From Escherichia coli (lineage in GTDB: Bacteria; Pseudomonadota; Gammaproteobacteria; Enterobacterales; Enterobacteriaceae): a stretch of DNA of 3,496 bases. Shown here piece after piece: positions 1-3,000 of the stretch; the stretch's first letter is position 1, and each line of letters starts with the position of its first letter. The stretch lies in NCBI RefSeq assembly GCF_003334385.1, contig NZ_QOWN01000092.1. The stretch is one strand, 5' to 3'. A program made the position numbers.

Positions 1-3000
1 GGCGCACCTGGTGCAGTGGGGCCCGCAGGCCCACGGGGACCGGCTGGTGCAGCTGGTCCCAAAGGTGATGCAGGCCCGGCAGGGCCACGAGGTGAAAGGG
101 GACCTGCGGGGGCACAGGGTGTTCCGGGGCCGGTTGGTCCGGCAGGTCCTGCGGGTAAAACGGGGCCACGAGGTTTGCAGGGAGAAACAGGAAGACAGGG
201 CCCGACAGGTCCACAGGGCCCGACAGGTGAACCCGGACCACAGGGACCACAAGGGCCAACCGGAAGGCTGGTACCCGGGGAAATTTACAGCATCGGAACA
301 TACATTATTGCCGCACTAGCCCCGTATACAACCGACATCGGCAGAACCTATCAGCCAGGAGAAACTGTACAGGGTTCACGCCTTAAGCGATGCGCCATAA
401 TCAAAGATGCAAGCGGGAACTATATGAAAGCTAACACCGATGGCATTGACGGCAGACTATCCTCAGTTCCGGGGTCATGGATGGTGTGTAATGAAATTAC
501 GTCGACAAATGACAATGAAGGCATCGGGCTGTTCCAGCGCGCATACTGACAGACAGGAGATGACATGAATGTGGAAAAAAATAAGCAATCCGCAATGGGC
601 AGATAAAGATCACACTGCTGTGAATTGCATGGTGAAGTTTGAGCACATTGAGCAGGCGGTTCCTTTCACTGCAACAGCCAGCGATACCGAAGCATACGGG
701 CGGGATATTTATGCCGCTTGTCTGAGAGGAGAGGCCGGTGAAATTGCAGAATATGTACAGCCATCCATCAGCCCGGAAAAAGCCAGAGAACTCAAAACCG
801 CCGGGATCAACGCCTGGCGTAATGCGATGGAAGCGGCGAACTACACGTTTGAGCACAATGGGCGTAAATGGGACTACGGGAAGTCAACGCAGACGCGTCT
901 TGAGCCGTCGGTGGCTGCCGCGAAAGCAGGAATACTGCCGGAGGGTTTTTTCTGGACGGATGCGGAGAATAACGACGTCCCGATGACGGCAGAGGCGCTG
1001 ATGGCACTCAGTGAGGCGGCGGAGAAGGCGATGTTCACCAAAGGGATGGAAATTCACGTACAGCAGCGCAACATGAAGAAGGCACTGGAAGCGCTGAACA
1101 GTGCGGATGAGATTCTGGCGTATAAGGTGGGTCAGGAGTCGTAAATAAAAAAACGGGGGTGATGCCTCACCTCCTCTTTCGTCAATAGAGGATTACTGCA
1201 ATCGTTTTTTTATTGTGAAACAGATTCTGCAATAACCGCCAGGCATATTCAGTGATGCCTGTCACACGCTCCGGAACGCGGATGGCAGCGGCATGTCAGA
1301 AAACGATTAATATTATTAATACATCGAAAAAAAATCAGAATGTGGTGGTTATCACATTATTAAGCGTAAGGAACTGTGTCATAAGTGCGCGAGGGAAATA
1401 AGCGAAACGACAGCATGCGGTGTGGAGCGTGAATAATGGCGGGGATGACGGATATCACCGACTGTACAGTACGATAATTCCTAAAAAGTTTATATTCATT
1501 TTTGCGAATAATCCTGGAATAAGCTGACAGGAAGCAGCCAGTTATCAGATTTTCTTTAGTGTATCTGAAGTGCGTCTGAGAGGGTTGCTTTTTTTGTATA
1601 CAAAGAAATTACAGGATATCCATAATGAGTAAAAAATTCACAAAGACACTTCTATCATCTTCTCTGGGTGGGCTTCTGCTTGGGATCAGCTCAGGTGTTT
1701 TAGCTCAGGAGTTACCTCCTATCAAAGATTCTGGTTTGCCTTCTTATTCAGTGCTGAAAGAGGCAGATGCTAAGTCTGTTATACACGGTAGTACTTATCG
1801 TATTTACTATAACAAATCCTCTGGTTGGGGAACAATGCGATATGTTCTGGACGGAAATGATAAGACCCTTTTTAATTTCGATCAGGAGGGTAATATTATA
1901 GTATTGAGTAAAGATAACTCAATTGCATATACCGTTCATGAGCCTGTGCTAAAAGACTTCGCCCGTATGGCAGCAGGCCTCAGAACGTCTGGCACAGAAA
2001 ACGGTAAGCATAAGGTTGATGAGGAGGAGGTCCGCCGGATCTTCAATAAAGTTAATAACTTATCAAATACAATTATTAATCCTGATTTATTTAAAAGCTC
2101 GGATTTTATTTCCTCTGGATCTGCTCCAGAAAATGACCCTGTAGTTCCTGCCAGTGCAGAAGGTGTGTTTGCGTTTGCGACTGGACAAGGTGCCAAGGCG
2201 AATGGATATATAGCAACAGCAGTGGGCTCATGGGCTGCTGCGGACGGTAAACAAAGTACAGCTCTGGGAGGGGGAGCATATGCCTATGCAGATGCTTCAA
2301 CAGCCGCCGGAACAGCTGCTTATGTTGATGGTTCTGCTATTTATGGTACCGCTATAGGTAATCACGCAAAAGTGGATAAAAATGCAACTGAAGGTGTTGC
2401 ATTAGGAGCCAAAGCAATATCTGCACATAAAAACAGTGTGGCCTTAGGGGCAAACTCCCGAACCACTCGTGATAATGAAGTTTACATTGGTTATGAAGAG
2501 GCTTCTGGTAAAGCATATAAAACCCGCACCCTTGGAGGATTGACTGATGGAACTCGCCCATCCGATGCAGCAACTGTTCGTCAGGTTGATCGGGTAAAAG
2601 ACAGTGTTGAGCAACTGGCTCAGGATACGAATACCCGCCTTGTAGTCGAAGCGAAAAAGTCTCGTGAATATACAGACTCCAGAACGACAGTTGGTGTGAA
2701 CCCTGACGGAAAACTTACCCGTGCAGAAGGTGCGACTAAAACTATCGCCGTCAATGATGGTCTCGTTGCTCTGTCTGGCAGAACAGACCGTATTGATTAT
2801 GCAGTTGGTAGCGTTGACCGCCGGGTTACTAAAAATACACAGGCTATTCAGTCCAATACTCGCCAGTTGCAGGAGCATAATGCACGCCTGAACAGCCAGC
2901 AGCGTCAAATTCGTGAGAATCACGAAGAGATGAAGCGTGCAGCAGCACAGAGTGCAGCGCTGGCGGGGCTTTTCCAGCCGTACAGTGTGGGGAAATTCAA

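Follow-up and report, generated by a model that had tools for sequence, protein, structure and literature searches.

A 22-bp inverted repeat upstream of an eib-type adhesin gene in Escherichia coli, referred to as site B in the following, is, with a probability that we put at about 0.5 on the strength of sequence comparison, a genuine operator of the cAMP receptor protein (CRP) type, located at the distal edge of a ~330-bp regulatory cassette common to all Eib-family prophage adhesin genes. It lies in a stretch of 3,496 nucleotides from contig NZ_QOWN01000092.1 (assembly GCF_003334385.1), hereafter the window, which is the tail end of a lambdoid prophage. The products of eib genes bind human IgG and IgA in a non-immunological manner, confer serum resistance and mediate the chain-like adherence of Shiga-toxin-producing E. 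coli negative for the locus of enterocyte effacement. What is known of their regulation is phenomenological: more Eib is expressed in static than in shaken culture and more in lysogeny broth (LB) than in glucose media, and expression depends on IbrAB. Judged from the upstream sequences, control of these antibody-binding adhesins by sugar, via cAMP-CRP, is plausible. No paper in the searchable literature links eib genes to CRP, and the presence of a CRP-type box at a fixed position before every eib-type gene examined appears to be new. Site B merits follow-up, whereas a second inverted repeat (site A) and a nearby class II promoter, both proposed in the initial annotation of this DNA, are not supported.

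Site B consists of the half-sites TGTGG (1341-1345) and TCACA (1352-1356), separated by a 6-nt spacer, with arms that read AATGTG and CACATT. It matches nine of the ten CRP core positions and carries G5, G7, C16 and C18, the G:C pairs contacted by CRP; its centre is located 276.5 bp 5' of the eib ATG. Site A, with AGTGA at 1251-1255 and TCACA at 1262-1266, likewise matches nine of ten core positions, in a poor context, has the same G:C pairs in the window, and overlaps a 7-bp hairpin (CAGGCAT, 1240-1246, and ATGCCTG, 1255-1261). Direct reading of the sequence agrees with the initial annotation on the position of both repeats and on the distance of 90 bp between their centres. They are the sole matches to TGTGANNNNNNTCACA (TGTGA-N6-TCACA) with up to one mismatch in the 3496 bp, where 0.10 are expected, and two matches were reached in 1 of 200 dinucleotide shuffles. 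The same two sites are again the only matches over the 12.5-kb genomic locus L001 (0.55 expected).

The two sites differ in their scores on a symmetric CRP weight matrix, for which 18 classical sites served as the basis. Site B has the highest score in the window (11.8 bits), a value reached by 87 of 2000 shuffles of the 480-bp spacer upstream of the adhesin gene and by 75 of 3000 shuffles of the 340 bp 5' of the ATG. As the leave-one-out scores of the 18 sites in this matrix have a median of 11.1 bits, site B looks like an average real CRP site. Site A, at 5.5 bits, is at background level: five matches in the window are this good, against 6.3 expected from shuffles. Such a scan had been named in the initial annotation as a check on its view of site B as a near-consensus CRP site. 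Comparison across upstream types, described next, makes site B a credible CRP-type site, on far stronger grounds than the window by itself could offer.

For this comparison, we assembled 33 eib loci and two more divergent autotransporters, which have the C-terminal anchor in common with them and carry different signal peptides. The loci were taken from the GenBank upstream regions of eibA, eibC, eibD and eibE, from E. coli genomes and from DNA-pattern scans of IMG/VR, in which the conserved C-terminal anchor and an invariant TTTGTATACA block served as patterns. They represent at least eight upstream types, namely eibA, eibC/D/E/G, STEC1585, KY171, the IMG/VR types L029, L027 and L035, and the type of the window. 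Even at 'distant' sensitivity, BLAST finds only the proximal ~170 bp (1447-1619) in common with other eib loci. In every upstream type, the best match to the CRP matrix within 520 bp upstream is nevertheless located 256.5-276.5 bp before the ATG, and the four GenBank regions each contain one strong match near the ATG distance of site B. These boxes score 11.8 bits in the window type (GAATGTGGTGGTTATCACATTA), 13.4 bits in the eibC/D/E and KY208 eibG type (TGTTGTAATTTTGTTCACAAAT), 14.7 bits in the KY171 type (TGTTGTGATCTTGATCAGAAAT), 15.4 bits in the L029 type (TTATGTGACGCATATCAAAAAC), 15.9 bits in the L027 type (TATTGTGATGTTGCTCAGAAAT), 13.9 bits in the L035 type (TGTTGTGATATTGATCAGAAAT) and 17.4 bits in the eibA type (TTTTGTGACTAACTTCACAATT), where the TGTGA-N6-TCACA core is perfect; the weakest, at 9.0 bits, is that of the STEC1585 type (TATTGAGATTTTTCTCATAAAT). 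When the 340 bp preceding each ATG were shuffled 3000 times, 2-75 shuffles came up to the box score in all types but STEC1585. As a negative control, the unrelated gene of locus L049, a chance match to our cassette pattern, is without such a CRP-type site.

The boxes of all types fall into a single block of a MAFFT alignment, and they are conserved in sequence class and position while the surrounding DNA has diverged almost to randomness. Across the four deep lineages (window, eibA, L029 and KY171), eight of ten core positions are invariant, compared with none of the 12 spacer and flank positions and with 24% of the remaining alignment columns (Fisher p = 4e-4). The box and a GTAA motif 9 nt 3' of it stand out most clearly among the conserved islands in the distal half of this four-lineage alignment. 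The family consensus, TaTTGTGATgTTgaTCAcAAAT, has a score of 19.7 bits and agrees with the secondary CRP positions (GAT...ATC) as well. Position 5 is a G in all eight types and position 7 in seven; the left half-site contains GTGA in six, the others having TGTAA (eibC/D/E/G) and TGAGA (STEC1585). Site A, by contrast, has no counterpart in the other eib upstream types and lies upstream of the point from which the types become alignable.

At shallower depth, 15 of 5426 complete E. coli genomes contain the full spacer, with 92.7-99.8% identity. The eib alleles that follow it encode 378-517 aa and have the 5' ends ATGAGT or ATGAAC (L007-L018), and since the same spacer stands before such different alleles, the regulatory region and the coding part, or its passenger domain, recombine independently. 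Among 14 near-identical copies, changes in site B are confined to the central positions 8 (G/A/T), 11 (G/C) and 14 (A/G), and the arms AATGTG and TCACATT are constant, a pattern that is suggestive, but not significant at such shallow depth. Most alleles score 13.7 bits, and that of KY202, with a perfect TGTGA, 14.8 bits. Site A is altered in SCU171 alone, where AGTGA has become AATGA, with loss of the critical G (G5) and a score of -0.9. In the same strain (SCU-171, L010), an ISEc12 element of the IS21 family replaces all DNA 5' of approximately window position 1234. The annotation's proposal that site A is a partner of site B is thus not supported, in view of its background score, its absence from other eib types and the G lost in SCU171; in all likelihood, site A is a look-alike confined to this upstream type and contributes little or nothing.

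The promoter served by the box is less apparent. A tool-based scan of 1100-1700 returned a single match, which overlaps the ATG, and none at TGtCATAAG, the extended -10-like element to which the initial annotation had pointed. With our own -35/-10 matrix, applied to five upstream types, no sigma-70 promoter near the box was either strong or conserved in position. The class II arrangement, a site at about -41.5 with a functional -10 element 30-35 bp from its centre, was not found, and at class I distances (-61.5/-72.5/-82.5/-92.5) there is just a weak TAAGTT/TAAGAT candidate in the eibC and KY171 types. Further downstream, a TAnnnT hexamer is conserved, whose T, A and final T are invariant in 12 representatives and which reads TATAGT in three types. 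In all 12, the hexamer follows the box centre at 111.5-116.5 bp, whereas its distance to the ATG ranges over 143-160 bp. If the hexamer is a -10 element, we infer that the box would lie between about -123.5 and -128.5, on roughly the same face of the helix as a site at -61.5.

In the reading that we favour, cAMP-CRP would bind the box and raise eib transcription from a distal position, which would be about -125 with respect to a non-canonical promoter near 1465-1477. CRP would act by DNA bending or by counteracting the silencing of the AT-rich cassette, as it does from far upstream at pap, and not through contacts of the class I or class II kind with a promoter close by. More tentatively, the Eib family (EibA, C, D, E, G-like and the two divergent trimeric autotransporters) may carry a portable ~330-bp cassette that is wired into the cAMP-CRP network of the host, probably through anti-silencing together with IbrAB. 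With the same reserve, such a cassette might be made up of an invariant CRP box at its distal end, a non-canonical promoter element at a fixed ~114 bp from the box, and a structured leader whose two inverted repeats have stayed complementary as their sequences changed. The expression data fit to some extent: static LB gives the highest levels of EibG and EibA, C, D, E and F, and Eib levels fall far below those in LB when the medium is M9 with 1% glucose or yeast extract with 2% glucose (PMC5450701).

A number of points weigh against a CRP operator. The lower Eib levels in glucose media are a circumstantial hint of catabolite control, as these media differ from LB in much besides glucose. The weight matrix does not derive from curated RegulonDB sites. 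Within the box, no core base is less conserved than that at position 18 (C in three types, G in three, T in one and A in one), the mirror of the critical G5, and the right half-site is often degenerate (TCACA, TCAGA, TCAAA or TCATA), with the STEC1585 box reaching just 9.0 bits. Because neither promoter scan revealed a conserved sigma-70 promoter at class I or class II distance, the mode of action at the box is a guess, and a position ~125 bp or more from the promoter is atypical for CRP. Reportedly, eib prophages are nearly silent in K-12 lysogens, in which CRP is present, unless ibrAB is supplied; as these lysogens have CRP and yet barely express eib, CRP alone would then not suffice. Moreover, eibG with 168 bp of upstream DNA, which excludes the box, complements the adhesion phenotype from multicopy pGEM (bioRxiv 10.64898/2025.12.25.695649). 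The box is therefore dispensable on this plasmid, where vector promoters and copy number make the evidence weak. Finally, the searchable literature yielded no results on protein binding, transcription starts or mutants for any eib gene.

Some of these points would suit another regulator better. The box could be the operator of a different dimeric DNA-binding protein, such as FNR, another member of the CRP/FNR family, IbrA/IbrB or a prophage regulator, with a partial likeness to CRP sites, which we consider unlikely. The variable right half-site would be in line with this, as would the conserved TTGTGA..N..TCA.A.AAT, which exceeds the CRP core and is followed by the invariant GTAA, and the lack of a standard CRP distance to any predicted promoter. 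Reportedly, eib expression also requires IbrAB. The induction of Eib in static or microaerobic culture would, in addition, suit an oxygen sensor (PMC5450701). However, the left half-site and position 5 are those of CRP in most and in all types, respectively, the family consensus scores as highly on the CRP matrix as given above, and the eibA core is perfect for CRP. We know of no other E. coli regulator that uses TGTGA-N6-TCACA. By an established rule, CRP and FNR sites are told apart by GTGAT for the former and TTGAT for the latter, and as position 5 is a G in all types, FNR is disfavoured and CRP indicated. Accordingly, the FNR pattern (TTGAT-N4-ATCAA, with T at position 5) was not observed, and an FNR-like right half, ATCAA, occurs in the L029 type only. 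A box without function is improbable as well. Site B would then be an island kept by descent or chance in an AT-rich spacer, with eib controlled from within the proximal ~170 bp, to which the BLAST-detectable similarity among eib paralogues is limited and of which a 168-bp fragment suffices on a plasmid; on its own, the score of site B is also only modestly improbable in the shuffles of both the 480-bp spacer and the 340 bp. But neutral descent does not readily explain why the core is largely invariant and spacer and flanks not at all in essentially unalignable surroundings, why the box is the top CRP match in eight of eight types, or why its spacing to the TAnnnT hexamer is nearly fixed.

Two further models keep CRP and differ in the promoter that it serves. 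According to the initial annotation, site B drives a class II promoter at TGtCATAAG, followed by a leader of ~233 nt, with site A as a second CRP site upstream. Both core matches are real, two in one spacer are unusual, and conserved downstream hairpins suggest a long transcribed leader; the element itself is present, at 31.5 bp from the centre of site B, and does not vary among the copies of this upstream type. Yet CATAAG (1380-1385) is without the near-invariant final T of a -10 element and would put CRP at about -43.5 instead of -41.5, the aligned counterparts in other eib types (GAAACA, CAAATT or ATAACA) are not -10-like, and neither scan found it. Site A, for its part, is absent from the other types and degraded in SCU171, and since the 90 bp between the sites correspond to ~8.6 helical turns, the two are out of phase. 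We hold this arrangement to be unlikely, with a small probability left for a weak promoter peculiar to this upstream type. Alternatively, site B might serve a minus-strand promoter for a short antisense or small RNA ending at a bidirectional terminator (1171-1158). By eye, a minus-strand AATAAT (1317 to 1312) is located ~31-36 bp from the box centre, and a terminator-like hairpin with a T-run is present on that strand at 1171-1158, but the DNA to the left of the box differs wholly between types, the conserved distance is that to the eib ATG, and neither an Rfam match nor a conserved minus-strand -10 element was seen, which leaves a leftward promoter with hardly any probability.

Table 1. Features of the window. 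Coordinates are window positions.
Feature	Position	Strand	Remarks
Collagen-repeat tail-fibre C-terminus	ends at 549		
DUF4376/'ORF-191' tail-fibre-assembly-like gene	569-1144		
Spacer between tail-fibre-assembly gene and adhesin gene	1145-1624		480 bp
Intrinsic terminator-like hairpin	1155..1174	+	follows the tail-fibre-assembly-like gene; 5' limit of adhesin cassette
Site A, CRP-core-like inverted repeat TTCAGTGATGCCTGTCACACGC	1248..1269		this upstream type only
Site B, 22-bp CRP-type box GAATGTGGTGGTTATCACATTA	1338..1359		matrix score, cross-type alignment
GTAA	1366..1369	+	9 nt after TCACA; invariant in every upstream type (alignments)
Extended -10-like element TGtCATAAG, TGTCATAAG	1377..1385	+	from the initial annotation; invariant in this upstream type
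TACAGT, conserved TAnnnT hexamer, candidate -10	1465..1470	+	followed by A(A/C)G..AA.TCC
AT-rich inverted repeat	~1473..1513	+	'stem_loop' of GenBank eib records; GenBank features, per-type folds
Conserved hairpin, TCAGAT / GTCTGA or ATCTGA	1545..1579	+	presumed leader; folds
TTTGTATACA	1593..1602	+	invariant in eib-type upstream regions (alignments)
Shine-Dalgarno AGGA	1613-1616	+	ATG at 1625
EibG-like immunoglobulin-binding YadA-like trimeric autotransporter adhesin, 508 aa	1625..3151	+	structure, sequence matches
Terminator-like hairpin and T-run after eib	3185..3210	+	matches post-eib stem_loop features in GenBank records
'ORF-156' start	3241 onward		

Downstream of the candidate promoter, the cassette contains several conserved leader elements (Table 1). 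The arms of the inverted repeat at 1473-1513 differ in sequence between types and are complementary, in per-type folds, in most of them, although not in KY171. The hairpin at 1545-1579, 45-85 nt before the ATG, is found in the same place in all 12 representatives (among them L003, L005, L020-L022, L027, L029 and L035), again with differing arms: TCAGAT/GTCTGA in the window, GTGTCAG/CTGACAC in L029 and a 12-bp pair, CCGAAATACATC/GATGTATTTCGG, in L027. This hairpin could act as a structured leader or an attenuator, and the conservation of these hairpins implies a transcription start upstream of ~1545. The invariant TTTGTATACA contains the palindrome TGTATACA and is located 23-32 nt before the ATG. 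For the multi-type alignment as a whole, RNAalifold gave just 12 weak pairs (-2.3 kcal/mol). Four of its pairs join TTCC(T) at 1476-1481 to the Shine-Dalgarno AGGA, with one-sided changes only; an anti-Shine-Dalgarno interaction in a long leader is a possible, weakly supported interpretation. At 1453-1461, TATCACCGA is reminiscent of a lambda-type operator half-site and is also found in the eibA-type upstream region; a lambda operator was rejected, as the second half-site is absent. Inspection by eye likewise led us to discard a LexA site (no CTG-N10-CAG), a GalR/LacI-type operator (no central CG) and an MlrA reading.

In the vicinity of the box, an eibC-type locus (L003, ~675-692, 11-28 bp 5' of the box) has a sequence, TGTTAACTGAATAGTTAA, which by eye resembles an ArcA-type direct repeat, with TGTTA at 11-bp spacing. 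This may be relevant to the induction of Eib in static or microaerobic culture. In related types, AACTGAACAGTT forms a 12-bp palindrome, and the window type has ATTAATATTATTAAT in this place (1306-1320).

The cassette as a whole was also found in other settings. At the KY171 locus (L021), it follows a gene with an LPD5 domain and not tail-fibre genes, and homology begins ~50 bp 5' of the box. An IMG/VR contig (L026/L048) contains a second regulatory cassette ~1.6 kb 3' of a complete eib gene. This second copy precedes a truncated eib-like open reading frame (ORF) of 161 aa and has its own box, TGTTGTGATGTTGATCAGAAAT, at d=262.5; both the truncated ORF and this box recur in a different contig, L040. 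The truncated ORFs of L026/L048 and L040 appear to be disrupted eib copies. Among GTDB species representatives, the cassette pattern TTTGTATACARATNATTTNAYAGG had no matches, which is why the cassette is apparently confined to some E. coli strains and prophages.

The gene behind the cassette belongs to the Eib family, with predicted immunoglobulin binding, as its sequence suggests a YadA-like head, a coiled-coil stalk and a C-terminal beta-barrel anchor in a prophage context. The 508-aa protein matches the EibD structure 2xqh with E=1e-84 and the YadA anchor 2lme with 1e-17. Its gap-free alignment with EibG of strain JNEC-KY208 shows 87% identity, and its identity to EibE, EibC, EibD and EibA is 77%, 66%, 65% and 53%, respectively; its UniRef label is 'Immunoglobulin binding protein'. 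The gene sits between tail-fibre genes and ORF-156/Eaa of a lambdoid prophage, and in the closest genomic match, E. coli JNEC-KY204 (99.8%), the locus is flanked by gpJ/lom/tail-fibre genes and an S6 (Eaa-type) autotransporter. The initial annotation was hence right to regard the adhesin as phage-borne. From approximately position 1200, GC content drops from ~0.5-0.59 to ~0.38-0.41 over the spacer and the 5' part of eib; together with the bracketing terminators, this is the usual signature of an accessory cassette among phage late genes. ORF-156 (window 3241-3496; full gene at 8096-8566 of L001) is constantly found just 3' of eib, and this constant linkage suggests a functional partner of the adhesin. 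A Pfam search with it yielded no match, and PHROG 6585, in which it falls, has no assigned function there. An Rfam scan of the whole window with E up to 1 gave no family, and the fold of 1145-1300 is unremarkable (z = -1.8). Two small ORFs in the spacer, 1252-1401 (49 aa) and 1420-1527 (35 aa), were rejected, as indels in other upstream types break their frames.

Compared with the classical E. coli cAMP-CRP sites (consensus AAATGTGATCTAGATCACATTT; lac, gal, malT), the eib box has the same 22-bp dyad with a TGTGA-N6-TCACA core. As is usual for natural sites, it combines one strong and one weaker half-site, site B and the family consensus match GAT...ATC, and the score of site B appears to be within the genuine range. 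Unlike known sites, the box is not at class I (-61.5 etc.) or class II (-41.5) distance from a recognisable promoter, but ~260-277 bp before the start codon.

The closest parallel is pap, where the CRP site is reportedly at -215.5. Both are adhesin genes with an AT-rich regulatory region on horizontally acquired DNA and a lone CRP-type box far upstream; in both, expression is reduced with glucose, at eib as far as the glucose-containing media suggest, and an extra dedicated activator is required (PapB/PapI at pap and, to our knowledge, IbrAB at eib). However, eib is without the Dam GATC/Lrp phase-variation sites and the divergent regulator gene of pap, its cargo is a trimeric autotransporter on a lambdoid prophage, and its mechanism is wholly inferred. 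At pap, the lone distant CRP site is required for papBA/papI, and CRP displaces H-NS in cooperation with Lrp (reviewed in PMC11316696).

The organization of the locus, in turn, is that of the 'moron' cassettes of prophages, such as lambda lom and bor, which have their own promoter and terminator among late genes. Likewise, eib follows tail-fibre genes, is bracketed by terminators and has a lower GC content than its neighbours. Its regulatory region differs in being unusually long (~330 bp conserved), in recombining independently of the coding part and in its composite nature, with a box, a hexamer, two conserved inverted repeats and the invariant TTTGTATACA. As for the cargo, there is a precedent in yadE of Yersinia pseudotuberculosis, another trimeric autotransporter adhesin gene tied to the cAMP-CRP regulon: its expression responds to cAMP and CRP (bioRxiv 10.1101/2020.03.31.019323). 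There, the gene is chromosomal, loss of cAMP raises expression, indicating negative control, and no CRP site is defined in the passage concerned.

The conserved CRP-type box provides a concrete and cheaply testable handle on eib regulation. The principle is not new, as CRP is well known to control the adhesins pap, fim and curli, and at least one trimeric autotransporter has already been linked to cAMP-CRP. If the box is a CRP operator, however, a prophage-borne immune-evasion adhesin would join the virulence factors that are tied to the carbon status of the host, and a portable cassette of the kind outlined above would, if real, explain the long-unexplained dependence of Eib proteins on medium and growth conditions.

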